From an uncultured Gammaproteobacteria bacterium (lineage in GTDB: Bacteria; Patescibacteriota; Patescibacteriia; UBA1558; UBA10009): a stretch of 64,000 nt of DNA. The position numbers and the translations under genes were made by a program. The stretch covers positions 3,425-67,424 of the forward strand of contig CAZPMS010000006.1 of assembly GCA_964588165.1 (NCBI GenBank). The letters run 5' to 3'. Shown piece by piece: positions 786 to 60,771 of the stretch; within the stretch, counting starts at the first letter, position 1, and each line of letters opens with the position of its first letter. The notes beneath the pieces were generated by a model, which saw only the letters and a list, made by a program, of their open reading frames with translations, did no database searches and was not told the origin of the DNA.

Positions 786-1316
786 TTACACTACAAAAGC
801 CGCGGGGTCGCCGTGGCTGAAGTCATAACCAAGCCAGTGTCCAAGCCAGCCCCACCTGTCGTCGTCCCAGTAGAGGAAACGAACGCTTAGGTCGCCATTT
901 GGGTAGCGATATATGGTACCCCAGAAGAAGATACGTTTACTTTTCCATTCCTCAGGAATAAGGTACGGATAAGCAAGTAGGTAGTCAAGGACATTGGCGT
1001 TGAAAACGGGCTTACCTTTCAGCTCCTTGTAAAGCTCATTGCCTTCAATTGCACTATCACCTTCTTGCTTCTTGGAAAGATAGAAAGAAACCCCGTTGGG
1101 ATCCCATTCCAGCTGTCCGCCATTGGTATGCTCTTCGACTTTCCAGTCTTTGGGCGCGAAAGGTTTGGCATCGCAATCAATAATACTGGTACCTCTTAGT
1201 AAAATCTGCAAGCCGGCCTTGGTAATTCTTCCGCTCTCAATTTGAGCGAAAAACTCTTTTAGCTGAGCGGGCGTTGGAGCTTTTGGACCCCAGTCAGCAG
1301 CATGTGATCTATGCAT
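786..1316 (-). CDS. hypothetical protein, Trp-rich (GC-rich islet ORF 1)
   Basis: 176-177 aa ORF. ATG at 1316 lies 6 nt after AGGAGG (the track start is GTG at 1319). G+C is clearly higher than the flanks. Own promoter and terminator. No family recognised. Confidence 0.6.
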   Translation of the reverse strand: MHRSHAADWGPKAPTPAQLKEFFAQIESGRITKAGLQILLRGTSIIDCDAKPFAPKDWKVEEHTNGGQLEWDPNGVSFYLSKKQEGDSAIEGNELYKELKGKPVFNANVLDYLLAYPYLIPEEWKSKRIFFWGTIYRYPNGDLSVRFLYWDDDRWGWLGHWLGYDFSHGDPAAFVV

Positions 1317-5664: not shown

Positions 5665-5707
5665 TTAAATGTAAAATACTACACACTACCAACTACAAAC
5701 TAATACC

Positions 5708-6640
5708 ATGCCAAAATCAAAAAACATCAAAGAGATTAAAACCAATAAAATGAAATGGATTTACTTAACCAATAACTCAAAAAGGGAAATTGATTATTTA
5801 AGGAACCATTTTTCTTTCCACCCATTAGATCTAGAAGATTGCCTTTCTCCGGCTCAACGGCCAAAGCTGGATGAATACCAAAACTATATTTTTATGATAA
5901 TGTCTTTCCCCTATTTTAACCGTTCTACCAGAGAAATACTGGCATCGGAAGTGGATTTTTTTATTGGCCCAAATTATTTAGTAACCGTTTCTGACGGCAA
6001 GCTGGCACCTTTAGCCAATTTTTTTGAACAATGCCAAATTAATGATTCTTACCGAGAAAAGTTTTTAGTTGATAGCCCGGCTTTTTTACTTTCAGAAATC
6101 TTAAATAAGCTTCAGCTTTACCTCCACCCAATGCTGGACCATATTCATGTTGATATCGAAAATGTCCAAAAAGTTATATTTGCCGGCTATGAAAAAAAGA
6201 TGGTTAAAGAAATTTTAATGGTTAAACGAAATATTATCAGCTTTAGAAAAATTATGCAGGCCCATAAAAACGTTATCCGCAAGCTCATTTCTAAAAAAGA
6301 AAAATTCTTTATTCCCAACACGGCTAATGTTTATCTTTCCAATAATCTGGAACAATCTAAAGATGTTTGGGATAATCTAGAAAGCCTTAAAGAAAATGTA
6401 GAAGCTTTGCATACAACCAACGAATCTTTAATTTCATTCAGGTTAAACGACATCATGAAAATTTTAACCATGATTTCTGTGATACTCCTGCCGATTAACT
6501 TAATTGCTTCCATTTTTGGCATGAACACGCCAATTATGCCTTTTATAAATAATCCAAACGGCTTTTATATTATTTTAGGCCTAATGTGCTGTTTGATAGT
6601 GTCTTTCTTCTTTTTCTTTAAAAAGAAAACTTGGCTATAA
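5708..6640 (+). CDS. corA: magnesium/cobalt transporter CorA
   Basis: 310 aa with two C-terminal TM helices and the signature FGMN (ASIFGMNTPIMPF). Confidence 0.85.
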   Translation: MPKSKNIKEIKTNKMKWIYLTNNSKREIDYLRNHFSFHPLDLEDCLSPAQRPKLDEYQNYIFMIMSFPYFNRSTREILASEVDFFIGPNYLVTVSDGKLAPLANFFEQCQINDSYREKFLVDSPAFLLSEILNKLQLYLHPMLDHIHVDIENVQKVIFAGYEKKMVKEILMVKRNIISFRKIMQAHKNVIRKLISKKEKFFIPNTANVYLSNNLEQSKDVWDNLESLKENVEALHTTNESLISFRLNDIMKILTMISVILLPINLIASIFGMNTPIMPFINNPNGFYIILGLMCCLIVSFFFFFKKKTWL

Positions 6641-6695
6641 ACTAGGTGGTAGTTAGTAGTTAGTAGATTCTTGATTAATTAAATATTGTTATATT

Positions 6696-6733
6696 AAAAA
6701 AGCCGTCCCGGATAAAACCGAAGGGCGGTTTTT
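6696..6733. terminator. bidirectional terminator between convergent corA and 6757-7173
   Basis: GCCGTCCC...GGGCGG stem (6702-6728) with an A-run before and a T-run after. Confidence 0.6.
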
Positions 6734-6756
6734 AATTTTAATCTACTCACTACAAC

Positions 6757-7173
6757 CTACTCACTAAATACAACTATCTCCTCATTAGTTTCTTCCAACA
6801 TATACCTTAAAGTATATACTTGGCCGTCGGACCAATAATAATAAGAAATATTTTCTGAAGCTGATGGATCTTGAGGAACTTCACCTAAAGCATTAACTAA
6901 AGCTTCATAACCATTGCTGGCTTCATCATTTTGGAAAGGAAAATTGTTATTTTGGCTATTATACTCTGTTAACTTGTTTTGAACAGCTTGAATATCTTCT
7001 TTTCTCTTAATATCTCTTTGTTTTACCAATTCTTTTTCATGATCTATGCCAGCCATAACTCCAGTACTAACCAAACCGATAATAGCTAAAGCTAACGGAA
7101 TAACTAAGATAACAGCACCTTTTTTATCTCGCCATGAGTAAATTTGAGAAGCGGATTTATTAGTTAAATTCAT
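6757..7173 (-). CDS. hypothetical membrane-anchored protein, pilin/pseudopilin-like C-terminal region
   Basis: 138 aa with an N-terminal hydrophobic helix. The RDIKRKEDIQAVQNKLTEYNSQNNNFP stretch resembles type IV pilin-like globular-domain openings. No G/FTLIE cleavage motif. Confidence 0.4.
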   Translation of the reverse strand: MNLTNKSASQIYSWRDKKGAVILVIPLALAIIGLVSTGVMAGIDHEKELVKQRDIKRKEDIQAVQNKLTEYNSQNNNFPFQNDEASNGYEALVNALGEVPQDPSASENISYYYWSDGQVYTLRYMLEETNEEIVVFSE

Positions 7174-7273
7174 ATTTTATTAGCTATATTTATATAGGTA
7201 ACTGAGGCATTATACTCTTTCTAAGAAAATCGTCAAGTTATCCTTGAAGTTAATTAAAATACATCCACGAGCT

Positions 7274-7312
7274 ATCTGCGGGTAATCTGGCGGGTAATCT
7301 GTGTTATCTGCG
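7274..7312 (+). repeat. phased heptamer array A (ATCTGCG, ATCTGGC, ATCTGTG, ATCTGCG)
   Basis: Heptamers start at 7274, 7285, 7297 and 7306 (spacing 11, 12, 9). The array ends 7 nt before TTGACA at 7319. Confidence 0.75.
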
Positions 7313-7318
7313 ACAGCA

Positions 7319-7347
7319 TTGACAAACCTGCTATTTTATGATAAGCT
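7319..7347 (+). promoter_or_regulatory. sigma70-type promoter of islet ORF 2
   Basis: TTGACA (7319-7324), N17, TAAGCT preceded by TG (extended -10-like). The leader contains CAACAAAAC-ATAGAGAGG before the ATG at 7397. Confidence 0.55.
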
Positions 7348-7396
7348 GATTTATTAAATTCTTTAACAACACCAACAAAACATAGAGAGGTCTACC

Positions 7397-8260
7397 ATGA
7401 GAAGAAGGTGGATAAAAATTGACGGTACTGATACCGTTATCCGCGGTAAAACGGTAACTTTGAATTTAGAGTTACCGAGTGAATTCCAAAACGTTCACAG
7501 TCGTGATTTGGTGATAAACTGTGATGAAGGAAATGTACTGATTTGTGAAAGGGATGGTATTCACATCGCACCGACCATTGAAGTTTTTCCTGATACTCCT
7601 GATGTTCTTACTTTGGAAGTTAAGGGTAAGCTCATTCATCAACCAACAACAAGGACTGATTCTGCAAAGGAAACCGGCAGAGGAGATCCTTACAAAGTTG
7701 GCGAGCCACAGGTGGAACCGATTTTCGCCGATCCTGATCCGGAAGCTGAAGAAGAAGCAGAACTGGAACAGATTGGTGAAAGAATTACTATCACCCAAGA
7801 AATGCCGGTATACGAAACCACTGAAATCCATCACTTTGAGGCTGAAGAAAATTATTCTGCACGCTTTACTTTCAGGGTGATTGATTCTCGGCCGCTGATC
7901 AAACGTAACGAACTCACTGAGCTTCGGTTTGAGCTACCTGATGGTTTCGGCAAAATCAATGAACATCATCTACCAAAGATTTTGGGAAAGGGCGCCTACG
8001 TTACCGAGTGGCAACAGATAGGCCAAGCCTTAACTGTTTCGGTGAAGACCAAAAAGTCTTCACCCGAGGAAATTACTCTGCGGGTTCGCGGCATGTGTGA
8101 AGGCGAACATACTGAGGAATTCTTCAAAATTGATGTAGAGCCGGAAACTGAAAAGGTTAAGAGAAAAACTCTTATAGCCTTGGCAATACTTCTGCTGATA
8201 GCTGCCAGCTTTGTTTCGGGCATATACATTTCTACTCTTTTCCCTCTGTTATTTCAGTAG
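7397..8260 (+). CDS. hypothetical tail-anchored protein with two beta-rich repeats and an acidic linker (GC-rich islet ORF 2)
   Basis: 287 aa. Internal repeat (..LTLEVKGK.. / ..ITLRVRGM..), DPDPEAEEEAELEQ linker and a single C-terminal TM helix. High G+C. SD GAGAGG. Confidence 0.6.
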   Translation: MRRRWIKIDGTDTVIRGKTVTLNLELPSEFQNVHSRDLVINCDEGNVLICERDGIHIAPTIEVFPDTPDVLTLEVKGKLIHQPTTRTDSAKETGRGDPYKVGEPQVEPIFADPDPEAEEEAELEQIGERITITQEMPVYETTEIHHFEAEENYSARFTFRVIDSRPLIKRNELTELRFELPDGFGKINEHHLPKILGKGAYVTEWQQIGQALTVSVKTKKSSPEEITLRVRGMCEGEHTEEFFKIDVEPETEKVKRKTLIALAILLLIAASFVSGIYISTLFPLLFQ

Positions 8261-8277
8261 ACCAAGTTAATTTCATT

Positions 8278-8311
8278 CCGTCGGTTAACACTAATAACCG
8301 GCGGTTTTTTA
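8278..8311 (+). terminator. Rho-independent terminator of islet ORF 2
   Basis: CCGTCGGTTA / TAACCGGCGG stem followed by TTTTTT. Confidence 0.7.
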
Positions 8312-8359
8312 TTTAAAAAAACTTAAAAATAAAAAATAGTAGATAGATATCCGCGGACT

Positions 8360-8409
8360 ATCAGTGATTAATCAGTGATCGTTCCGCGAATATCAGTGAA
8401 TTATCTATG
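8360..8409 (+). repeat. phased heptamer array B (ATCAGTG x3, ATCTATG)
   Basis: Heptamers start at 8360, 8371, 8392 and 8403 (spacing 11, 21, 11). The array ends 7 nt before TTGACA at 8416. Confidence 0.7.
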
Positions 8410-8415
8410 AAAAAC

Positions 8416-8444
8416 TTGACAAAATCAATAAATTATGCTAAATT
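8416..8444 (+). promoter_or_regulatory. sigma70-type promoter of islet ORF 3
   Basis: TTGACA (8416-8421), N17, TAAATT (8439-8444). The leader has the palindrome AATGTTgttgAACATT (8456-8471), ACATAGACAAAAC, and SD AAAGGAG. Confidence 0.65.
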
Positions 8445-8515
8445 ACAATGTTAAAAATGTTGTTGAACATTGACAAAAAAACGCTAAACATAGACAAAAC
8501 AAAGGAGTACTGAAA

Positions 8516-10882
8516 ATGGCTACCACCGCAAAAGAAGTAGCTGGCGCAGCCACTGCTACCTCAGCTGCCGCAGCCAGAGAACAATTCCGTTTGGAACTGT
8601 GGCAAGTTTTCCGCGACATTCTTATCGGCAAAGACAAGTGGGTTGATGAAGTTGCCAGAACCCATTACGAAAACCAATTCAAGGAACAGTTTTCGGAGAA
8701 ATACGACCTACTTCTGAAAATGCTTCATCCCGACAACCTAAGTACTACCGACCAGCATTGCCTGGATATGGTGGCCTTGGAACATGCCAAGTTGGCCGAT
8801 AAATCTTTGCACGAAAAGGATACGGCTAAGCTCATACCAGGGATGTTTAAAATCTTCTGCGACAAGTTGGAAGAAGTTATTGACTTGGCTACCGAAGGTG
8901 ATGAGTTTGACGTCATCAAAGCGCACACACTGCTCCGGGACAAACGCTGGATCGGTCAGGGCTTCTGGGCTCAAAGGCTAAAGGAAAACATGGGTGAAAT
9001 TCTCAAGCTGGGTTGGATTTCTGAAGGCCTGAGAAGATTTATCCAATCTCCTATCGTTCATGACTTCATGGAAGGAGCTGAACAGCCTTCCATCGATTTC
9101 TTTGAATGGGCCCAGCAGCATTACAACCTCGCAGCCAAAATACGCAGCGGAGCACCCAGTAATCGCCGTTACAGCAACAACCCCTTCAAAAACTTTTTTG
9201 TAGGGCTGCAGTTGATGATTGGTGTTGCTTGGAACTATCTGATGGTAGGCTTGGGCAAGGTGAACAAGTTAAGGCAACAGAATTGGCACAGGATTGGCAA
9301 AAGGACCTTCTGGACAACCATAATTGTTCTGGGTGTGGTCATTGCTTTCCTGATACTGCTGGGATTAGGAATCCACAACAGCTACTTCAAAAGTACCAAC
9401 TACCTTTGGCTTATTGCGACTGCTGGAATTCTACTGTTCATCATCTTTGCTACACTCAAGATTATTGAGGCTGCACTGGGATTGGCCATCTTCACGGTAC
9501 GCTTGGCTTTTGCTGTTATAGCTAGGCCGTCCCTCTGGACCGTTGAACAAGGCGGTAAGTTTATCTGGCAAGTTGGTACTTGGCCAATTGAATTTGGCTT
9601 TGACGCTATAACCGACACCTTTAAGGGGCTATTAATGTTCTTAGGGGTTGATATTGAGGACATTGAACGGTTAAGCGACAGAAAATTCGAACTGACTGAA
9701 GCTCAGAAATCTGCTTGGGGAGATTTAAGTAAACGAACAGAAGACTTGATGAAAGGCGCCCGCCAAACCAGTATTTTCATCACTGTCGGCTTCAAGTATT
9801 TTGCGGCGCTGATAACTTCCACTTCTTTCCTGATCTTGGCCAAATGGCAGTTTTCTGGCGTAGACTCCAGTGCGGTTTTGAACAATCCGGTTTTTGCTCT
9901 GCTGATTCTTTTCCTGCTGGGCTCGCTTTTCACCCATTTTGGAATCCGTGAATATCAGGCAAGAATTGCTAAAGCTACCGGCTTAGATGACAAAAAGCGC
10001 TCCTGGCGAACAGTTAACCGGATTGCTTTTGCTTGCCTTGTTCTGCTGATTCTGGCTGAATGGCGATTTGAAACCGTCACTAACGTCTGGTACTACAATG
10101 CCAGGCAATCAGCAGCCATAACCGAACACGCAAACCAAGAAAGGAGGCTTAAAACTGCGATTTGGGAAAAAAATCGCAGTGCAACAATTCATCGTGGAGC
10201 AACTGTATTTTTGGCAGAAACCGATACAGAAAACGATGATGAGTCTTACATCGTCATAACCGACTCAACTTTCAGCCGGCCAAATCCGAATGTGGTTTAT
10301 GTGGTAAAACCTGCCCTTGAGCAAAACGGCCAGGTATTTACTATCTACAACCCCATTGACCAAAATGGCATCAGGCAAGCAAGCCTGCAATACGCTGTTT
10401 TGGCTCAATATCTGGATCAGGTTACTCCAAACGAGGCAGCCCGCTTGCTGGCTACCAAAACTGAGGCAAAGCCATCATTAATGCCTAGCTCCATTACTTA
10501 CAATCCGAGCAAAGGCATGGCAGTGCTTGGGTATGTTAACACCGATGATGTTCTTTATCTGGATCCTGTCCAACTGTCACTACTTAGCTGTCCTGAAGAA
10601 AGCGATATTGGACTGAAAGGTACCCATGGTACACCGCGTAGCCGCCATGAAGATTGGCCTGAAGAATTCGTTGATCAGCGCATGCGGCTTGGCGCCCTGT
10701 TGGTGAAATTACCAGCTTATGGTTGGCAACCTTTGTACCAAGCCGAGTCATTCAACATCCGTGGCAGCGGAACAGCCATGGTCTGCGTTAATACGCGGCG
10801 TGGGCTTTTTGGCCTTAACGAAGGAGGAATGGTAGATATTGCTATCAGGCTGGAAACCTATGCCGAAATGGCACAACGTTAA
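8516..10882 (+). CDS. hypothetical polytopic membrane protein, 788 aa (GC-rich islet ORF 3)
   Basis: Long uninterrupted ORF at roughly 45-60% G+C in sampled stretches. Soluble N-terminal ~270 aa, ~8 hydrophobic helices, soluble C-terminal ~250 aa. No family recognised. Confidence 0.65.
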   Translation: MATTAKEVAGAATATSAAAAREQFRLELWQVFRDILIGKDKWVDEVARTHYENQFKEQFSEKYDLLLKMLHPDNLSTTDQHCLDMVALEHAKLADKSLHEKDTAKLIPGMFKIFCDKLEEVIDLATEGDEFDVIKAHTLLRDKRWIGQGFWAQRLKENMGEILKLGWISEGLRRFIQSPIVHDFMEGAEQPSIDFFEWAQQHYNLAAKIRSGAPSNRRYSNNPFKNFFVGLQLMIGVAWNYLMVGLGKVNKLRQQNWHRIGKRTFWTTIIVLGVVIAFLILLGLGIHNSYFKSTNYLWLIATAGILLFIIFATLKIIEAALGLAIFTVRLAFAVIARPSLWTVEQGGKFIWQVGTWPIEFGFDAITDTFKGLLMFLGVDIEDIERLSDRKFELTEAQKSAWGDLSKRTEDLMKGARQTSIFITVGFKYFAALITSTSFLILAKWQFSGVDSSAVLNNPVFALLILFLLGSLFTHFGIREYQARIAKATGLDDKKRSWRTVNRIAFACLVLLILAEWRFETVTNVWYYNARQSAAITEHANQERRLKTAIWEKNRSATIHRGATVFLAETDTENDDESYIVITDSTFSRPNPNVVYVVKPALEQNGQVFTIYNPIDQNGIRQASLQYAVLAQYLDQVTPNEAARLLATKTEAKPSLMPSSITYNPSKGMAVLGYVNTDDVLYLDPVQLSLLSCPEESDIGLKGTHGTPRSRHEDWPEEFVDQRMRLGALLVKLPAYGWQPLYQAESFNIRGSGTAMVCVNTRRGLFGLNEGGMVDIAIRLETYAEMAQR

Positions 10883-10892
10883 CAACAAACAA

Positions 10893-10932
10893 CCCCTTAT
10901 CATTTTTTCAAAATGATAAGGGGTTTTCTTTT
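10893..10932 (+). terminator. strong Rho-independent terminator of islet ORF 3
   Basis: 14-bp perfect stem CCCCTTATCATTTT / AAAATGATAAGGGG followed by TTTTCTTTT. Confidence 0.85.
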
Positions 10933-10978
10933 AAATAAATTTATTCTACAAACTACCAACTACAACCTACTCACTATA

Positions 10979-12097
10979 TTATAATCCTTCTTTTTCTAAA
11001 TCTTCCAATAACTTCTTTTGCTTCCGGCTTAAATTATCAGGCACTTCTACCTTTACTTCTACAATTAAGTCTCCCCTGCCTCGGCCTCTTAATTTATGGG
11101 AGCCTTTATTTTTAATATTAAATTGGCGTCCAGTTGGCGTACCAGCCGGAATTTTTAAACTTACTTTGCCGTCTAAGGTTTCTATCTGGACTTTATCGCC
11201 CAAACTGGCTTGAGAAAATTTAATGGTTTTAGTTGTATGCAAATTATCGCCTTCTCTGTTAAATATTTTATGGGGCAAAACCCTAACTGTTATATATAAA
11301 TCTCCGGCTGTGGAACCTTTTAAGCCAGCTTCGCCTTTACTGGTTAGCCTTACAGTTTCCCCGGTAGAAATTCCGGCCGGAATACCAACTTTAACCCTTT
11401 CTTTGCCTCTTACTATACCATTACCGTGGCACTTAGCACATTCTTTTTCCGGTTTTTTACCTTCACCCATGCAGGCTTCGCAAACAGCTGCTGTCCTAAA
11501 AGTGCCAAAAAAAGTATTTTGAGTTTTATTTACCTGCCCGGAACCGCCACAGGTTTTGCATCCGCTGATTTTAGTGCCTGGCTCTGCCCCATTTCCCTTG
11601 CATTTTTCACACAAAATATTTTTAGAAATATCCAAAGTTTTTTCTATACCAAAAATTGCTTCCTCTAAAGTAATATTTATGCCAGCTTCAATGTCTCTGC
11701 CTTTATAATTCCTTCTGGTTGCTTGTTGGCGTTGGCCACCGCCAAAAAAATCGCCAAAGATATCGCCCAAATCATCAATATTAATATTATAACTACCTTG
11801 TCTAAAACCACCTCCACCTGCTCCACCTTGCCTAAAGGCATCAGACCAGTTAAAACCGGCATCATAAGCTGCCTGGCCGCCCATGCCCTCAAAACTGGTT
11901 CCAAACTGATCATACTGCTTTCTTTTTTTATCATTGCCAAGAACCTGATAAGCTTCGTTTACTTCTTTAAACTTATCAGCATTGCCGTTGCCTTTATCCG
12001 GATGATGCTCATGTGCCTTTTTCCTAAAGGCTTTTTTTACTTCATCGGCAGTGGCGCTTTTCTCTACGCCCAATGTTTTATAGTAATCTTTTCCCAT
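10979..12097 (-). CDS. dnaJ: molecular chaperone DnaJ
   Basis: J-domain with HPD (HEHHPDKG), a G/F-rich region and four CxxCxGxG zinc-finger repeats. Confidence 0.95.
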   Translation of the reverse strand: MGKDYYKTLGVEKSATADEVKKAFRKKAHEHHPDKGNGNADKFKEVNEAYQVLGNDKKRKQYDQFGTSFEGMGGQAAYDAGFNWSDAFRQGGAGGGGFRQGSYNINIDDLGDIFGDFFGGGQRQQATRRNYKGRDIEAGINITLEEAIFGIEKTLDISKNILCEKCKGNGAEPGTKISGCKTCGGSGQVNKTQNTFFGTFRTAAVCEACMGEGKKPEKECAKCHGNGIVRGKERVKVGIPAGISTGETVRLTSKGEAGLKGSTAGDLYITVRVLPHKIFNREGDNLHTTKTIKFSQASLGDKVQIETLDGKVSLKIPAGTPTGRQFNIKNKGSHKLRGRGRGDLIVEVKVEVPDNLSRKQKKLLEDLEKEGL

Positions 12098-12149: not shown

Positions 12150-14084
12150 TTATTTATCTTCCTTGTCATCCGAAGAGGATGATTCCTTTACTTCTTCAAC
12201 TTCTGCTTCCACAGGTTCGTCTTTCTTTTCTTCTGATTGGTTTTCTTGACCTTCCTGACCTTCAGTTGGCTGTGCCTGCTCTTGCTGTTGTTTATACATG
12301 CTTTCACCAATTTTCTGGACAGTCTGGTTCATATCTTCCAAAGCCTTGTTAATAACTTCAGCATCTTCGCCATCTTTAACCTTTTTTAAGGCATCCATTT
12401 TTTCGGTTACTTCGGTTTTTACATCTTCCGGAACCTTATCAGCTGATTCCTTAAGTAGTTTTTCTGTTTGGAAGATTACTGAATCGGCATTGTTTTTAGC
12501 ATCAATTAAATCCTTTTTCTTTTTATCATCATCAGCATGAAGTTCAGCATCCTTTTTCATCTTTTCTACTTCATCTTTAGAAAGTCCGGATGAAGCGGTA
12601 ATGGTAATTGACTGTTCTTTACCTGTGGCTTTATCTTGCGCCTTAACGCTTAAAATGCCGTTGGCATCTATATCAAAGGTAACTTCCACTTGAGGAACGC
12701 CCCTTGGTGCCGGCGGAATTCCGGAAAGGATAAATCTGCCTAAAGTTTTATTATCTTGGGCCATTTCTCTTTCGCCCTGTAAAACATTAATTTCTACTGA
12801 TGACTGGTTATCGGCCGCAGTAGAAAAAATTTGTGTTTTAGAAGTTGGGATGGTGGTATTCTTTTCTATTAACGGAGTCCTTACGCCACCTAAGGTTTCT
12901 AAGCCTAGAGTTAAAGGAGTTACATCCAATAACAGCACATCTTTAACATCGCCTTGCAAAACACCAGCCTGGACTGCAGCTCCAAGTGCTACTACCTCGT
13001 CTGGATTAACTGAAATATTTGGCTTTTTGCCAAAATATTCCTCTACCTTCTTTAATACTAAAGGCATTCTGGTCATGCCGCCAACTAAAATTATTTCGTC
13101 TATATCTTCTTTTTTAAAGCCGGAATCTTTTATTGCTAATTCAACCGCTTTAAACGATTGTTCAACTAACTCTGTAGTTAACTCATCAAGTTTAGCTCTG
13201 GTTAATTTCATTACCAAATGTTTTGGCCCTGCCTGATCGGTTGTTATAAACGGCTGATTAATTTCAGTTTCAGTGGAAGTAGAAAGTTCTACCTTGGCTT
13301 TTTCTGCGGCTTCTTTAACTCTTTGCATGGCCATGGCGTCACCGGTTAAATCTATACCCTGGTCTTTTTTGAATTCAGCAATAATCCAGTTAATAACCTT
13401 CTGGTCAAAGTCATCACCACCTAAATGAGTATCGCCATTGGTGGATTTAACTTCTACAGTATCTTCAGAAACATCTAAAATAGAAATATCAAAAGTTCCG
13501 CCGCCAAGGTCATAAACTGCCAGCTGCTGATTTTTCTTTTTATCAAAACCATAAGCCAAAGCAGCGGCTGTTGGTTCATTAACAATACGCTTTACTTTAA
13601 AACCGGCAATTTCTCCTGCATCCTTTGTGGCTTGACGCTGTGAATCGCTAAAATAAGCCGGTACGGTAATAATGGCTTCTTCAATTTTTTCACCCAGTTT
13701 CTCTTCAGCATCAGCTTTTAGCTTCTGCAAAATCATGGCCGAAATTTCTTGGGGCGTATATTCCTTATCTCCCATTTTAACTTTAACGCCAGCACCTGAT
13801 TTGACGATTTTATAAGGCATGGTTTTAATGTCGTCTTGGACTTCTTTATCTTCAAACTTTCGTCCAATTAAACGTTTTATGGAAAACAAAGTACTTTCCG
13901 GATTGGTGACGGCTTGCCTTTTAGCCAGTTGGCCGGCTAACCTTTCGTTGGTTTTGGAAACAGCCACCATAGATGGGGTGGTTCTGTTGCCTTCTTTGTT
14001 TTCTAATATTTTTGGCTGTCCGCCTTCCATAACAGCCATGGCTGAATTTGTTGTTCCTAGATCAATACCTAATATTTTTGGCAT
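12150..14084 (-). CDS. dnaK: molecular chaperone DnaK (Hsp70)
   Basis: 644 aa. [17 protein letters not shown] and the full Hsp70 architecture, with an acidic C-terminal tail. Confidence 0.97.
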
Positions 14085-14181: not shown

Positions 14182-14229
14182 ATCTGCGAATAATCTGCGC
14201 GTCATCTGTGACCAATCTGCGTATCTCTT
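14182..14229 (+). repeat. phased heptamer array C (ATCTGCG, ATCTGCG, ATCTGTG, ATCTGCG, degenerate ATCTCTT)
   Basis: Heptamers start at 14182, 14193, 14204 and 14215 (exact 11-bp spacing), then 14223. Lies between the divergent dnaK start (14084) and TTGACA at 14238. Confidence 0.8.
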
Positions 14230-14306: not shown

Positions 14307-14762
14307 ATGGACCAGCATGTATTTACTTTGAAAGGACGCTTCTGGTGCCTTGGAGGCCTTAGCGTTCATAGGGCTTTATTAAGGCCAGCTGACTACCTGC
14401 AAGATCCTAGGCCGACTCTGGGCGAAATGACCAAGGCATTCTTTAACCTGATGCATCTGAAACTTGGCAGGCTCGAACTTCCTATCCAAAAGGGTGGCCA
14501 TGGAGAAATCTGGATTTTTTATCCTAATGGATCTGGATTTAAAATTGAATTCAGGGAAGGGAAATTATGCCTCATCCGTTTTGGCAAATTCAGTGATGAT
14601 AGTCTGGATGTAAAATATCATGAAAATATTCTCGCCAAAATACCAATAGGCTCCCTGCCTCCAGAAGCAATAAAACAAGATTTTGTGCTTGACAATGGAA
14701 TGATACTGAATCACGATTCAATATCTCAACTAGGAACTGTCTTTACTGGCCTAGCCGCCTAA
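14307..14762 (+). CDS. hypothetical protein (GC-rich islet ORF 4)
   Basis: 151 aa. Higher G+C than the flanks, with SD AAGGAG 7 nt upstream. No family recognised. Confidence 0.55.
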   Translation: MDQHVFTLKGRFWCLGGLSVHRALLRPADYLQDPRPTLGEMTKAFFNLMHLKLGRLELPIQKGGHGEIWIFYPNGSGFKIEFREGKLCLIRFGKFSDDSLDVKYHENILAKIPIGSLPPEAIKQDFVLDNGMILNHDSISQLGTVFTGLAA

Positions 14763-40484: not shown

Positions 40485-41048
40485 TTATCTTTTCTTTTTC
40501 ACTTTAGTATTTTTTCTCTTTGGCTTTTTTGTGGTTCTGCGTTTTTGCGCTTTTGCGGTCTTCGCGCCTTTGCGTTTAATCTTCTTTATTTCTGAAAATA
40601 GATGGACTATTGGCTCTTCCAACTTTTTATAATCATTAACTGTCATTTTGATGCTTTCCACCAATGAACCTCCGGAAAAAATTACTTTCTTTACTTTGTC
40701 AAAACCCTTATCTAGAATAACTTCAACTTTATGGATAGAACCAAATCCGGTTAATGAACCGGGCTTAATTTTAAAAGCTTTAATAAGTTCCGCTTCTTTT
40801 GGAATAACCACTTTTTTGGCCTTAAGGGCTTTTTTTAATTTAGATAAATTTACGTTCTTGTCTGAAGCCAAAATTAACAAATAATAGTTCTTATCAGCTT
40901 TAACAACTAATGACTTGGCGATTTCATCTAATTTGACTTTAAGAGTTGCCGCAGCATCAAAGGCAGTATAAACTTTTTTATGCGGTACAATTTCGTATTT
41001 TACTTTTTTATCATCTAAATGTTTTAGCACTTTCTTTGAAGTTGACAT
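40485..41048 (-). CDS. YbaK/aminoacyl-tRNA deacylase-domain protein with a Lys/Arg-rich C-terminal tail
   Basis: The YbaK-like core covers ~150 aa. The last ~35 aa (KKIKRKGAKTAKAQKRRTTKKPKRKNTKVKKKR) are encoded by a reiterated CGCAAAA-type word tract. Confidence 0.7.
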   Translation of the reverse strand: MSTSKKVLKHLDDKKVKYEIVPHKKVYTAFDAAATLKVKLDEIAKSLVVKADKNYYLLILASDKNVNLSKLKKALKAKKVVIPKEAELIKAFKIKPGSLTGFGSIHKVEVILDKGFDKVKKVIFSGGSLVESIKMTVNDYKKLEEPIVHLFSEIKKIKRKGAKTAKAQKRRTTKKPKRKNTKVKKKR

Positions 41049-41064
41049 ATATTTTAATTTAATT

Positions 41065-41123
41065 ATCTGCGGAATATCTGCGTGTCATCTGCGCCTGCCC
41101 GCCTATTGCGGGGTCAATCTGCG
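41065..41123 (+). repeat. phased heptamer array D (ATCTGCG x4) interrupted by a GC hairpin
   Basis: ATCTGCG at 41065, 41076, 41087 and 41117 (spacing 11, 11, 30). The CCCGC-CTATT-GCGGG hairpin lies between them. The array is 17-75 nt upstream of the minus-strand start at 41048. Confidence 0.75.
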
Positions 41124-41429
41124 TTATCTTTTTCCCTTTTTAAATTGAAAACTTTTTTGTTCGCCTAATAACTTTTTAGCAATTAAACGACCTTTAGGTG
41201 TTAGGCTTACTTCTTTAATAAACCACTTATGCTGAGTTCTTTGGCCATAACCGACCATTAAACCCTTATCAATTAATCTATCTATGCTTTTTGAAATTAT
41301 TTTAACCTGTTCTAATTTTGATGGAGTTTTTTTGCCGTTGTAATATTTATGGTAACGGCTGCGTAAAATCTTATTCCTTTGCCCAAAACTTTCTTTAAGT
41401 ATAAATTTTTGTAGGGCTGAAAGCTTCAT
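41124..41429 (-). CDS. hypothetical small basic protein (possible wHTH)
   Basis: 101 aa, Lys/Arg-rich. ATGA overlap with the upstream HD gene. Confidence 0.45.
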   Translation of the reverse strand: MKLSALQKFILKESFGQRNKILRSRYHKYYNGKKTPSKLEQVKIISKSIDRLIDKGLMVGYGQRTQHKWFIKEVSLTPKGRLIAKKLLGEQKSFQFKKGKR

Positions 41430-45736: not shown

Positions 45737-46354
45737 ATGAAGAAAGTTTTTGGAGTCTTAGCCGTTCTTTTATGCTTTCTGCTGTTGGTAGCTACCTTTG
45801 CCTTCCCATTCTGGAACGATAATCGGTTGGCCGTCAAAGAGCGCAGCGAAGCCATTGTAGCTGCTCAGGAATTCACCGTTGAAGGCCAATTGCTGGCTAC
45901 CGTTCACTATTCACTGGAAGGTATTGAAACCAAGGGAGAATTTAACCAGACTTTCATTGAACTGGTAAACCAACAAATTCCCTCCTACAACGACGCCGGC
46001 CAACGGCTGATAACCTATTGCTATATAGCCGGCCAAGAATCGTCTTCACAGCAAGAAATCTTATTGGCCAAACAGAACCTTAAGCCTTGCCAGAATTCGA
46101 TTATGATATTTTTGGCAAATTCCGAAGGGAAAACAAATTGCTACTTGATTATTGATAATTATTGGTCGAGCAACATGCCTGCAATTATGGGAATGTTTAT
46201 GAAGCCGAATACTGGACCGCTAACAGAGACTTTTACAGCTTTGATGATTGGCGCAACAATAAAAATTCCTTCAACTGTTTTATTGACCGGTGGCTGGATT
46301 CCCAATAACCTGGTGTATTTCTCCGATGAACAAATCCCTTATTTAACCAGTTAA
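45737..46354 (+). CDS. hypothetical secreted/anchored protein (GC-rich islet ORF 5)
   Basis: 205 aa. N-terminal signal/anchor MKKVFGVLAVLLCFLLLVATFAF. SD GGAG. Higher G+C than the flanks. Confidence 0.55.
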   Translation: MKKVFGVLAVLLCFLLLVATFAFPFWNDNRLAVKERSEAIVAAQEFTVEGQLLATVHYSLEGIETKGEFNQTFIELVNQQIPSYNDAGQRLITYCYIAGQESSSQQEILLAKQNLKPCQNSIMIFLANSEGKTNCYLIIDNYWSSNMPAIMGMFMKPNTGPLTETFTALMIGATIKIPSTVLLTGGWIPNNLVYFSDEQIPYLTS

Positions 46355-46682: not shown

Positions 46683-47096
46683 ATGAGGTATCCGAACTCT
46701 TTTCTGAAGAATGGTCCGCTTTATGTGGTCATTCTAGCTGCTCTCGTTTTCGTAACGGGGTTTGTTCAGTACAACAGCGACAGCCATCACTTCAGCATTC
46801 AGCACGAAACTTTCGTCGCAGGCGACAACCAGGCCTCATTGATCGGCTACACAGTTGCTGATCTGGAAAATTATGGGCAACGTTACCTTGAAGCCAAGTA
46901 TCCTGGGACATCCCAACTGCCACGCTTCGTAAACGTGGCATTAGGAATGATACCTGTACTACTTCTTCCACCAAACATTTTTTGGTCGCCAGCAATCATT
47001 CTTACATTTATGCTATGCGGAATCTGCGGAATATTGCTTACCGGAATAATTTCTAACCGCAATATGAATTGCCTCAAACCAACTTTATCACAATAA
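46683..47096 (+). CDS. hypothetical membrane protein (GC-rich islet ORF 6)
   Basis: 137 aa from the ATG at 46683, with SD GAGGGA (the track starts at GTG 46671). About 3 TM helices. Higher G+C. Confidence 0.5.
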   Translation: MRYPNSFLKNGPLYVVILAALVFVTGFVQYNSDSHHFSIQHETFVAGDNQASLIGYTVADLENYGQRYLEAKYPGTSQLPRFVNVALGMIPVLLLPPNIFWSPAIILTFMLCGICGILLTGIISNRNMNCLKPTLSQ

Positions 47097-47854: not shown

Positions 47855-47936
47855 ATCTGTGAGTAATCCCTACCTTCCGGCAGGCAGGCGTGGGTCATCT
47901 GGTGGGTAATCAGTAAATATCTGTGACTTATCCGTG
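47855..47936 (+). repeat. phased heptamer array E (ATCTGTG, ATCTGGT, ATCAGTA, ATCTGTG, ATCCGTG) with a GC hairpin insert
   Basis: Heptamers start at 47855, 47897, 47909, 47919 and 47930. The hairpin CCTACCTTCCGGCAGGCAGG lies at ~47868-47887. The array abuts TTGACC at 47937. Confidence 0.65.
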
Positions 47937-47965
47937 TTGACCCTATTTTAACAGATTTAACTATA
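47937..47965 (+). promoter_or_regulatory. candidate promoter facing element F copy 2
   Basis: TTGACC (47937-47942), N17-19, ACTATA/TATATA. No plus-strand ORF follows. Confidence 0.4.
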
Positions 47966-47985
47966 TAAAACTAATTTTTTCACAT

Positions 47986-48077
47986 ATAACACGAATGCTC
48001 GCTATTCTTTTACAGATTACACACTAATCCGTGCGCTATTAGTGTTTTATCCGTAAGCAACAGTGTTATTAGTTATT
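47986..48077 (+). repeat. noncoding element F, copy 2 (possible sRNA or cis element)
   Basis: Homologous to 2404-2497 (see that feature). Lies between candidate promoter E and the islet-7 terminator. Confidence 0.55.
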
Positions 48078-48087
48078 TACGCATAAA

Positions 48088-48150: not shown

Positions 48151-48645
48151 TTACTTTTTCAGCTTCTTGCCGAAGCCTTCATTGTCAAGAAATGTGAGCG
48201 CTTCAATCCAGAGAATGGCCTTAGCCATTTCTTGTGCGACACACTTCACGTTTCGACCACCAGGACCGTAAGTGAATTTACTGACACCCAGCGGGTATTG
48301 AGTACTGAAAGAGGCAATAATACCCTCAGTCATTTTCTGTTTTCCGCTGGTCTCGATAATTTGAGTTACGATTGGCCACTTAAAGTCATCACGGGTATGG
48401 TTGGATACCACTGCCCCGACTACCATCCCAAGGTTCCAGTTGACATCGCGTAGATGATCAAGCCCTTTGCCCTCAGCAAGCCACTCGTTGACCACCGTTT
48501 TTACTATTGGCCAGCTCCATTGCCAGCAACCAACTCCCACCAGAAGCAAATCACGATTGTCATGTACTCGAATGCCAGCCTTAGAAAACTTTATAAAGTT
48601 TTCTTTTAAAGCCCTTTCCTCTCGATTCTTCTCTTTGAAAGTCAT
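48151..48645 (-). CDS. hypothetical protein (GC-rich islet ORF 7)
   Basis: 164 aa, preceded by AGGAGGAG 3 nt upstream... of the ATG. Higher G+C. No family recognised. Confidence 0.55.
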   Translation of the reverse strand: MTFKEKNREERALKENFIKFSKAGIRVHDNRDLLLVGVGCWQWSWPIVKTVVNEWLAEGKGLDHLRDVNWNLGMVVGAVVSNHTRDDFKWPIVTQIIETSGKQKMTEGIIASFSTQYPLGVSKFTYGPGGRNVKCVAQEMAKAILWIEALTFLDNEGFGKKLKK

Positions 48646-59535: not shown

Positions 59536-60771
59536 TTAATAATTTTCAATTGATTGAGAAAAAGGATTTGCTAAAATATTTGATTCTAAAATTTTCTGCC
59601 AGTCATCTGCTGAACATTCAACTTCCCACAAAACTCCATTTTTTATTGAACTGATCTCGGACATATTTAATCTATTATTTAATGTATCAAGTTTTGCCTG
59701 CCCCGTAAAATCGTCTTTGTATCTAGTGAGTAGTTTGTAGGTGGTAGTGAGTAGTTTTGATTTGTCATTAATATAAGGAATCTCCTTATTGGTATTTAAC
59801 AGTTCGTTTGATTTTATTAATTGGTCCACAAACTGTTCTGACTGATCAATAGATTGAATTTCCCAATGAGTATAACGTTTAACTTTGACGCCACTAAAAC
59901 CAAGGTTATTTAAAGCAGTTTGAAGGGTTTCTGCTTCATTGTCGGTAATTATAAGTTCAACCAACATTTCCATAGCCTCTTCCGGTTTTTTATATTCCCC
60001 ATTTTGAATTTGATTATTAAAATTTTGTATCTTGTCTGTTTCTTGCTTCTTGTTTCTTGCTTCTTGTTTATCTAAATAAGCTTTCATTGATTCAAATATA
60101 ATCTGTCCATCATCCGTTCTTTCCGGATGAGGCATTAAAGCTAAAACATTACCAGCCGGATTGCTAACTCCGGCTAAATTATAAACAGCACCATTGGGAT
60201 TAATAGGAAATTGATCTTTTACTTCCCCATTTTTGTCACAATACCTAAAAACTGTCTGGCCATTTTCTTTTAATTGATTTAAGACATCCTCATTAATAAC
60301 AAACCTGCCTTCACCATGGGCAATGGGTAATCCAAAATGATGGCCTTGTTTATAATTATTAAAAGCTGATCTTCCTGACTGAACATCATTTTTAATTCTA
60401 ACCCAAATATTTAAATAACCATGGTTATTCCAAGCCAAGGATGATCCTAAATGGTGGTTTTCTAATCCAGGAATCAATCCAGATTCAACCAAAATCTGAG
60501 CGCCATTACATATACCAATAACCGGCTTGCCTTTGGCTGACTCTTGTTTAACAATATCCATCAAAGGATCCCGGCCGGCAATAGCGCCTGACCTTACTCT
60601 ATCTTCGTAACTAAAACCACCGGCAATAAAATAACCGTCAAATTCCTTTAATTTATTATAATCATCGTTCCATCTAAAAAATTCCGCGTCCATACCGGCT
60701 TTTTTTATAGCCCGAGCTGACTCGTACTCACAATTAGTGCCGGGAAATTGAATAATAGCTATTTTATGCAT
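59536..60771 (-). CDS. purQ: FGAM synthase glutaminase subunit PurQ fused to two PurS-like repeats
   Basis: The N-terminal ~230 aa are a class I GATase (IAIIQFPGTNCE, GICNGAQIL, MPHPER). The C-terminal ~150 aa contain two PurS-like units ending LLNTNKEIPY and ILANPFSQSIENY. The linkers are encoded by reiterated word tracts. Confidence 0.85.
   Translation of the reverse strand: MHKIAIIQFPGTNCEYESARAIKKAGMDAEFFRWNDDYNKLKEFDGYFIAGGFSYEDRVRSGAIAGRDPLMDIVKQESAKGKPVIGICNGAQILVESGLIPGLENHHLGSSLAWNNHGYLNIWVRIKNDVQSGRSAFNNYKQGHHFGLPIAHGEGRFVINEDVLNQLKENGQTVFRYCDKNGEVKDQFPINPNGAVYNLAGVSNPAGNVLALMPHPERTDDGQIIFESMKAYLDKQEARNKKQETDKIQNFNNQIQNGEYKKPEEAMEMLVELIITDNEAETLQTALNNLGFSGVKVKRYTHWEIQSIDQSEQFVDQLIKSNELLNTNKEIPYINDKSKLLTTTYKLLTRYKDDFTGQAKLDTLNNRLNMSEISSIKNGVLWEVECSADDWQKILESNILANPFSQSIENY

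Follow-up and report, generated by a model that had tools for sequence, protein, structure and literature searches.

Episymbiotic bacteria of the Candidate Phyla Radiation (CPR) possess variable surface-protein loci, including lectin-fold targets of diversity-generating retroelements, and to our knowledge very few surface molecules of the Parcubacteria are understood. Among lectins, the PA-IL/LecA family (PF07828) includes LecA of Pseudomonas aeruginosa, PllA of Photorhabdus and the N-terminal domain of EclA; D100, N107 and N108 of LecA are its calcium- and galactose-binding residues. Elsewhere in bacteria, inner-membrane proteins such as ElaB, YqjD and TssL are tail-anchored, and promoters may be activated via helically phased direct repeats, as in the OmpR/PhoB-type binding arrays. 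Here we analyse two neighbouring open reading frames, ORF2 and ORF3, in a 64,000-nucleotide stretch (the window) of contig CAZPMS010000006.1, which a first-pass annotation had joined as a two-gene GC-rich islet and the largest foreign block in the window. The reading that we favour, and consider probable, is that ORF3 is the fused form of a clade-specific, inherited membrane module with an exposed binding head, and that ORF2 is a separate, lineage-specific orphan.

The window is a piece of a Parcubacteria genome: its best DnaJ matches among species representatives are from Parcubacteria, at no more than 57% identity, and the closest relative found is Candidatus Giovannonibacteria bacterium GW2011_GWA2_53_7, whose DnaK and DnaJ are 87% and 72% identical to those of the window. 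Both ORFs lie between a small minus-strand gene and dnaJ. Homologous proteins and related contigs are referred to by our P and L numbers, respectively.

6757-7173, minus strand: gene of a small, N-terminally anchored protein of 138 residues, a conserved neighbour of the module outside the GC-rich pair
7397-8260, plus strand: ORF2, 287 residues
8516-10882, plus strand: ORF3, 788 residues
10979-12097, minus strand: dnaJ, the right-hand neighbour of ORF3

A module encoded by one, two or three genes

Word-indexed searching of 5.8 billion proteins with ORF3 returned only ORF3 itself, and the same kind of search with the family alignment likewise returned only the query. An exhaustive phmmer search of 1.84 billion representatives yielded 19 proteins at E <= 0.001, with a best E of 6.8e-84. 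Among them are groups that match only parts of ORF3.

P0005, P0011: about 225 residues, matching ORF3 residues 5-213
P0006, P0013, P0017: about 270-290 residues, matching the membrane part only
P0007, P0009, P0014, P0016: about 310-360 residues, matching ORF3 residues about 494-780
P0003, P0004, P0010, P0012: 468-604 residues, matching the membrane and C-terminal parts

Genomic look-ups revealed these part-matching proteins to be products of adjacent, often overlapping genes. A two-gene order, N followed by membrane-C, is present in L030/L033, L034, L037 and L041, and a three-gene order, N, membrane and C, in L035, L036 and L045, a gene boundary in the latter group falling within the K/R-rich loop at ORF3 residues 478-500. 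In the Giovannonibacteria relative, the stop codon of the N gene overlaps the next start as ATGA. P0005 (224 residues), which aligns with the ORF3 N domain at E 1.9e-37, is a stand-alone protein like P0011, and the two N-domain subtypes are related to each other (hhalign probability 92.7%, E 4.4e-7). The order of the parts is conserved across the one-, two- and three-gene forms. ORF3 is the fully fused form of this rare three-part module, the natural fusions and splits of which show which parts act together. A metagenome scan with a two-sequence alignment recovered only the already-known Giovannonibacteria contig, and literature searching found nothing relevant.

Topology and fold of ORF3

ORF3 had been described as having soluble N- and C-terminal ends around some eight transmembrane helices. 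The soluble ends are confirmed; the helix count was too high, with five helices clear and seven at most. The parts may be delimited as follows.

8516-9160, plus strand: residues 1-215, N domain, all-helical and predicted to be cytoplasmic; a separate gene in relatives
9176-10078, plus strand: residues 221-521, membrane core, delimited by hydropathy, loop charge, AlphaFold2 (AF2) helices and homologues
10079-10465, plus strand: residues 522-650, stalk helix and beta-rich middle domain, predicted to lie outside the cell; low model confidence
10466-10855, plus strand: residues 651-780, beta-sandwich domain of PA-IL/LecA fold, predicted to lie outside the cell

An amphipathic helix at residues 226-247 is followed by membrane helices at about 265-287, 297-338, 418-443, 456-477 and 501-521, and the core carries a conserved W..TWP.xF motif. 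From hydropathy and loop charges, the K/R-rich loops 248-264, 376-416 and 478-500 fit the cytoplasmic side; by the positive-inside rule, the N domain would therefore be cytoplasmic and the lectin-fold domain would face outwards. The split C-part proteins start exactly at the basic loop, with a single helix following in the manner of a signal anchor.

The first-pass annotation recognised no domain in ORF3, and searches of Pfam (E up to 0.1), PHROGs, NCBIfam and PADLOC gave no match. A structure model and Foldseek nevertheless place a PA-IL/LecA fold at the C-terminus. The AF2 model was calculated with a 16-sequence family alignment, single-sequence AF2 attaining a predicted local distance difference test (pLDDT) value of only 37; over residues 651-780 the block-mean pLDDT is mostly 79-93, with one 10-residue block at 57. 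Foldseek agrees with the fold assignment (E 1.7e-4, TM-score 0.69-0.71), and the modelled domain is a PA-IL-type beta-sandwich. The family profile of this domain aligns with LecA in the PDB over its full length at E 0.02, and LecA and the family have five invariant positions in common. Of nine C-domains in the family, one matches PF07828, at E 0.031, which is below the curated threshold; judged from these comparisons, the relation to PA-IL/LecA is one of remote homology rather than formal membership. Four of eight homologues (P0009, P0014, P0016 and P0010) keep D, D/N and N at the positions of LecA D100, N107 and N108. Upstream of the lectin-fold domain, residues 583-655 weakly resemble the repeats of two cadherin-like/Big_9 adhesins (P0015, E 9e-7; P0019, E 3e-4).

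The same architecture might be read differently, as a transport, signalling or envelope-maintenance complex in which the membrane core does the work and the lectin-fold domain is an accessory or structural cap. The core is the best conserved part, being 45% identical to P0003 and having an invariant W..TWP motif, and the N domain is conserved and translationally coupled; furthermore, the window copy has lost the canonical sugar and calcium ligands, and L005 keeps the N, membrane and beta parts with no detectable lectin-fold domain. We nonetheless find this reading quite improbable, given that the module resembles no transporter, kinase or other signalling family and that the rapid overall divergence would be unusual for core machinery.

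Position, divergence and base composition

The GC contents of ORF2 and ORF3 are 0.433 and 0.469, compared to a mean of 0.361 (standard deviation, sd, 0.041) for the 61 window ORFs, and their third-position values (GC3) are 0.389 and 0.490, compared to 0.313 (sd 0.062). ORF3 is thus 2.6-2.9 sd over the window mean on the two measures. Compositional 'islets' of this kind are routinely taken as horizontal transfer, and the whole 4.2-kb segment, comprising the small gene (called 'pilin-like'), ORF2 and ORF3, could be considered a recent foreign island downstream of dnaJ: the composition favours it, neither protein has a match in Pfam, PHROGs, NCBIfam or PADLOC, and an exact 18-mer, extending to 26 of 30 bases, is present at both ends. 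Several observations make this explanation very improbable. The GC rise is restricted to the two coding sequences, while the spacers (7174-7396, GC 0.336; 8261-8515, 0.29; 10883-10978, 0.28) are as AT-rich as the rest of the genome, so that the segment is not one continuous GC-rich block. There is no integrase, transposase or other mobility ORF in 6640-10980, and comparison with PHROGs, phage records and viral contigs gave no match; the search did not include plasmid records.

A further observation is the position of the module in relatives. In all five related lineages examined (L030, L035, L040, L045 and L005), with DnaJ 57-72% identical to that of the window, some form of it is convergent with dnaJ.

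L030/31/32/44 (DnaJ 72%, DnaK 87%): module convergent with dnaJ; then dnaK, the 111-residue protein gene, hsp20, grpE, hrcA and FtsX genes as in the window
L035, L040 (DnaJ 65%): module, gene of a 206-208-residue membrane protein, dnaJ
L045 (DnaJ 64%): 125-residue protein gene (minus strand), 150 nt, N gene, membrane gene, C gene, convergent dnaJ
L005 (DnaJ 57%): dnaJ, 217-residue protein gene, overlapping genes of 480 and 239 residues convergent with dnaJ, corA (65%), o175, o856

The 125-residue product in L045, whose gene lies upstream of the module and divergent from it, shares 44% identity (E 4e-41) with the 138-residue protein of the window, so that L045 displays the arrangement of the window minus ORF2. 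In L005 the slot is flanked on either side as in the window (dnaJ on one, corA-o175-o856 on the other). The 239-residue protein of L005 is an N-domain homologue, with an E of 1.4e-14 against a hidden Markov model built without it. The first-pass annotation had asked whether relatives have corA and dnaJ adjacent without the block; L005 has the corA flank, yet a divergent form of the module occupies the slot. It had likewise allowed that universal presence in the lineage would count against foreign origin, and for ORF3 this is essentially what the five lineages show. ORF3 is not absent from the same site in relatives and only ORF2 is (in L045, L005 and L037), so foreign origin, untenable for ORF3, could apply at most to ORF2. 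From the syntenic module in relatives, it follows that ORF3 is an inherited clade feature at a fixed site.

The 18-mer was proposed, with reservations about its low-complexity CTAC-word context, as the boundary of the segment. The match is exact (6749-6766 and 10959-10976, where 0.03 matches would be expected by chance) and the reservations were apt, each copy sitting in tandem CTACNNN heptamers, arrays of which are present at five places in the window.

6740-6769, plus strand: CTACNNN array with the left 18-mer, overlapping the end of the small gene (final codons and stop) when read on the minus strand
10946-10979, plus strand: CTACNNN array with the right 18-mer, in the dnaJ 3' untranslated region (UTR), GUAG repeats on the minus strand
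5679-5700: CTACNNN array, corA 5' UTR
6649-6669, reverse strand: CTACNNN array, corA 3' UTR
59724-59754, reverse strand: CTACNNN array

Read on the coding strand, the arrays at corA, the small gene and dnaJ are GUAG repeats between stop codon and terminator. Since the 18-mer belongs to a recurring motif class and the gene order that it brackets is ancestral, it would make a poor island boundary. The 7-nt period of the GUAG arrays puts UAG in all three frames, and the corA 5' UTR has a CUAC array in place of the Shine-Dalgarno (SD) sequence, complementary to the array in the corA 3' UTR.

The module diverges several times more rapidly than the genes around it: ORF3 shares 35% identity with P0003, its counterpart by position (45% within the membrane core), compared to 68-87% for seven flanking proteins. 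Its composition also differs from that of its surroundings in most lineages.

Window: module GC 0.47, flanks 0.36
L035: module GC 0.44-0.48, flanks 0.28-0.40
L037: module GC 0.43-0.46, flanks 0.28
L045: module GC 0.46-0.50, flanks 0.41-0.45
L005: module GC3 0.69-0.76, flanks GC3 0.53-0.62
L030: module GC 0.49, flanks 0.49

Thus the module is richer in GC than its flanks in five of six comparable lineages, in other host genomes as well as that of the window, with GC3 about 0.1-0.25 above the flanks. Since synonymous sites are saturated at such divergence, a local GC3 excess that recurs must be maintained by something still in operation, for which biased gene conversion, selection and repeated exchange are candidates. 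This repeated GC excess of a syntenic, fast-evolving gene is the most interesting residue of the analysis.

Exchange in its strongest form would make the slot by dnaJ a recombination hotspot at which divergent module alleles are swapped among related Parcubacteria, the window copy having originated in a GC-richer relative. In favour of this, divergence is much greater in the module than in its flanks, module GC (0.43-0.62) corresponds poorly to that of the host genome, and the genome of the Giovannonibacteria relative has a GC content of 0.49, near the 0.47 of ORF3. Moreover, four assemblies of that relative break in or near the N gene, hinting at population heterogeneity. We consider the hotspot unlikely, however, since module and DnaJ similarities rank the lineages in roughly the same order, with the window closest to L030 in both, and no near-identical donor exists among the 1.84 billion representatives. 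In addition, with synonymous sites saturated at 35% identity, the GC3 of a donor should have decayed unless transfer was recent, and the locus is invariant within the species, where assemblies from six separate samples differ by 0-3 single nucleotide polymorphisms per 20.9 kb, none clustered in the module. Because these assemblies are nearly identical, comparison of strains is uninformative.

The breaks just mentioned are in GW2011_GWA2_53_7 and its variants (L030, L031, L032, L044, L033), where four independent assemblies end inside the N gene or no more than 400 nt upstream of it; a 795-nt contig is the sole source of the N gene itself. These breaks suggest that strains in the population of the relative differ at this point. 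In L035 (2679-4262) and L037 (2990-4531) a very AT-rich (0.28 GC) gene for a polytopic membrane protein of about 520 residues lies 3' of the module; a C-terminal remnant is present at L034 2620-2730, the window lacks the gene, and the L035 protein has no Pfam match.

Proposed role of the module

We propose that Giovannonibacteria-like Parcubacteria inherited the module at one set position, flanked by the small anchored-protein gene and dnaJ, and that its first part, a helical N domain of about 220 residues with no signal peptide, would reside in the cytoplasm. The second part would be a core of 5-7 membrane helices, and the third a final signal-anchor helix, stalk, beta domain and outward C-terminal PA-IL/LecA-fold domain. 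The latter may serve as a ligand- or glycan-binding head shown on the cell surface, for attachment to, or sensing of, a partner cell or substrate, and could be coupled through the membrane core to the cytoplasmic domain. Given this topology, ORF3 most likely displays such an exposed ligand-binding or adhesion head; fast divergence fits an exposed, contested surface protein. The suggestion of a membrane or host-interaction module is thus reasonable for ORF3, as a membrane protein with a predicted outward binding-type domain; for ORF2, direct host contact is unlikely.

Certain findings weigh against this proposal. The N domain and membrane core match nothing known and are modelled with block-mean pLDDT of about 37-73; the orientation of ORF3 is based on hydropathy and loop charges, and function is read from fold and topology alone. 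In the alignment of the family with LecA, the window copy has T, L and N at the positions of D100, N107 and N108. As regards inheritance, relatives are few and their contigs short, with the closest DnaJ at 72%, so that lineage-wide presence is that of a sample only, and the 480-residue protein of L005 matches the family only in the middle beta motif (2% hhalign probability against the full alignment). Finally, the GC excess persists in a vertically inherited gene.

A bolder extension, to which we assign only a small chance, is that the module is an undescribed, CPR-specific surface apparatus (cytoplasmic helical subunit, new membrane core, exchangeable lectin-fold head) for partner-cell recognition by Giovannonibacteria-like episymbionts, its GC3 excess resulting from continual recombination, with GC-biased gene conversion, or from selection on this one locus. 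If true, a lineage-independent GC3 excess at a fixed site would mark an arms-race gene and not horizontal transfer. What is new here is the clade-restricted membrane architecture; the lectin fold on the C-terminus of ORF3 is already known. A rare, clade-restricted module with a predicted outward lectin-fold domain is a specific candidate for attachment and sensing studies. ORF3 is also a counter-example to the usual interpretation of islets, being foreign by GC, syntenic in five of five lineages and GC-enriched in most, and as such bears on composition-based island calling in reduced, AT-rich genomes.

Two other roles were considered and rejected. Anti-phage defence was discarded in view of the lack of a PADLOC match, and a diversity-generating retroelement target because there is no template/variable repeat pair in the region; no reverse-transcriptase gene was seen nearby, the neighbouring ORFs being only partly annotated.

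ORF2, a lineage-specific orphan

The features attributed to ORF2, namely two beta-rich repeats, an acidic linker and a C-terminal transmembrane anchor, were all found. The repeats, of about 75 residues, comprise residues 8-77 and 164-234 (23% identity, E 3e-4) and the linker is DPDPEAEEEAELEQ. The N-terminus, MRRRWIKIDGTD, is hydrophilic and there is no signal peptide; a single hydrophobic helix, at residues 260-282, follows KVKRK, with a hydropathy peak of 2.56 at 260-278 of 287. ORF2 thus has its sole predicted membrane helix at the extreme C-terminus, as expected of a tail-anchored protein. Because it lacks a signal peptide, the simplest reading is that ORF2 is tail-anchored with its bulk predicted to lie in the cytoplasm, a location that would make direct contact with a host unlikely.

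Searching 5.8 billion proteins by the word-indexed method returned ORF2 itself only, and there was no match in Pfam, PHROGs, NCBIfam, PADLOC, the PDB (with the single sequence and a repeat profile), viral contigs or phage records. Of the relatives, L045, L005 and L037 have a readable upstream side, and all three lack an ORF2 homologue. Only about 12 nt separate the small-gene promoter from that of the module in L045, compared to about 1.2 kb in the window, where the ORF2 cassette lies between them. ORF2 and ORF3 are separate transcription units, which, with the absences just given, leaves the idea of a two-gene module unsupported. Complete with array, promoter, coding sequence and terminator of its own, the ORF2 cassette is a lineage-specific orphan unrelated to ORF3, and it alone acts as a lineage-specific addition, transfer and birth in place being the candidate origins.

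It might be asked whether one or both ORFs are not genes at all, being chance ORFs or decaying remnants; ORF2 has no homologue, and GC-rich DNA has fewer stop codons. This is scarcely credible given the ORF3 homologues down to E 6.8e-84 and its confidently folded domain, the internal protein-level repeat and clean hydrophobic tail of ORF2, the SD, consensus promoter and terminator on both ORFs, and the intact, identical state of both in the assemblies of six separate samples.

Promoters and repeat arrays

Each ORF had been credited with its own heptamer array, TTGACA promoter, SD and terminator, and all of these proved real.

7274-7312, plus strand: ATCTG(Y)G direct-repeat array, four copies at 9-12 bp spacing, ending 7 bp before the ORF2 -35
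7319-7347, plus strand: ORF2 promoter, TTGACA-N17-TAAGCT
7386-7391, plus strand: ORF2 SD, GAGAGG
8278-8314, plus strand: ORF2 intrinsic terminator, a 10-pair stem, then TTTTTTATTT
8360-8410, plus strand: ORF3 repeat array, three copies of ATCAGTGA and one of ATCTATGA, spacing 11, 21 and 11 bp
8416-8444, plus strand: ORF3 promoter, TTGACAAAA-N-TGcTAAATT (extended -10)
10891-10925, no strand assigned: shared bidirectional terminator of ORF3 and dnaJ, a 16-pair hairpin with T-runs on both sides
14182-14221: second ATCTG(Y)G array, four repeats at exactly 11 bp, then the TTGACAAA promoter
41065-41123: third array, of ATCTGCG, three repeats at 11 bp, a short GC hairpin and a fourth repeat

The ATCTG repeats of ORF2 start at 7274, 7285, 7297 and 7306, with TTGACA following at 7319; in the ORF3 array ATCAGTGA starts at 8360, 8371 and 8392 and ATCTATGA at 8403, with TTGACA at 8416. 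The distance from last repeat to -35 is equal at the two genes, and the phasing of both arrays is close to one helical turn. The window contains 20 occurrences of ATCTGYG compared to 7.1 expected, and three of the four exact copies of ATCAGTGA in the window are within the ORF3 array. The ORF2 array is probably a transcription-factor binding array, and from its sequence the arrangement of the arrays looks like that of putative activator binding arrays. The second array precedes an ORF at 14307-14762 (plus strand), a GC-rich (0.425) 151-residue orphan between dnaK and the 111-residue/hsp20 genes, with the same promoter design as ORF2. This identity of design suggests a possible small regulon of orphan genes, to which the shared phased ATCTGCG arrays also point, and ORF2 is probably co-regulated with the other orphan through them. 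The third array lies between a YbaK-like gene (40485-41048, minus strand) and the gene 41124-41429 (minus strand), with no same-strand promoter downstream of it.

The ORF3 SD, AAGGAG, lies downstream of an A-rich leader that carries a second TTGACAAAA at 8471. In an upstream alignment, the ORF3 -35 and extended -10 match invariant columns across six lineages. This was rejected as proof of orthology, the same TTGACAAAA...TGcTA consensus preceding unrelated window genes; consensus promoters also occur at the hrcA operon and others, and ORF2 and ORF3 are not special in this respect. A TCAGTGATT 9-mer common to the upstream regions of the window and L005 was likewise considered attributable to chance. 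At the first gene of the module, the A-rich 5' leader (8445-8515 in the window) has blocks in common with L033, L005, L035, L037 and L041, and the second TTGACAAAA is present in the window, L033 and L005. RNAalifold predicted 0 pairs for the ORF3-family leader, and hence no conserved RNA structure.

Neighbouring genes and other features of the window

The label 'pilin-like' for the small gene at 6757-7173 is unjustified. Its sole pilin-type signal is to GspG (TIGR01710), at E 0.028 and 14.5 bits, far below the cut-off of 88.85, and inspection of the 138-residue protein found no prepilin cleavage motif (G/FTLxE) as in a class III signal peptide. The product is, as predicted from its sequence, a small signal-anchored protein.

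GC-rich (0.42-0.48) short ORFs are also found at 786-1316 (minus), 45737-46354 (plus), 46683-47096 (plus) and 48151-48645 (minus), scattered among AT-rich housekeeping operons, and at least three of these four have their own consensus TTGACA/extended -10 promoter. None has an NCBIfam match above threshold, and 786-1316 is also without a Pfam match. The result for ORF3 implies that they should not be presumed foreign.

An ATCWGTG-type phased array in 47855-47942 ends in TTGACC at 47937 and is followed some 50 nt downstream by an element of roughly 95 nt (47985-48085) that is repeated at 2400-2500, with about 60% identity over an aligned 130 nt and a common core of GTGCGCTATTAGTGT...AGCAACAGT.TTATTAGT. 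This element may represent a regulatory region in repeated form or a gene for a small RNA; Rfam matches in the window were to tRNAs only. At position 12205, inside dnaK, three independent contigs of the species (L002, L003 and L004) stop at the identical base, which is probably an assembly break at sequence common to other community members.

Comparison with known systems

The arrays at ORF2, ORF3 and ORF 14307 resemble the OmpR/PhoB type in having three to four 7-8-bp repeats with an 11-bp period directly upstream of the -35. Unlike that type, the 41065 array has no downstream promoter on the same strand, and we know of no described site that ATCTGCG and ATCAGTGA would match. ORF2 shares with ElaB, YqjD and TssL the lack of an N-terminal signal peptide and a single hydrophobic helix in the last 30 residues after basic residues, but Pfam, NCBIfam and PDB searches gave no sequence similarity to them and its beta repeats are without recognised relatives.

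ORF3 recalls the variable surface loci of CPR bacteria, in that a fast-evolving, putatively surface-exposed binding-type domain is encoded by a CPR bacterium of reduced genome. It differs from the targets of diversity-generating retroelements in that its fold is of the PA-IL and not the C-type lectin kind and its locus is invariant within the species. As to the PA-IL/LecA family itself, the sequence match of ORF3 is under the Pfam threshold, and two of the three LecA ligand positions, D100 and N107, are substituted. The C-domain has the same fold as LecA, PllA and the N-terminal domain of EclA; however, LecA and PllA are small, soluble, stand-alone proteins, whereas the domain in ORF3 would form the tip of a 788-residue integral membrane protein.

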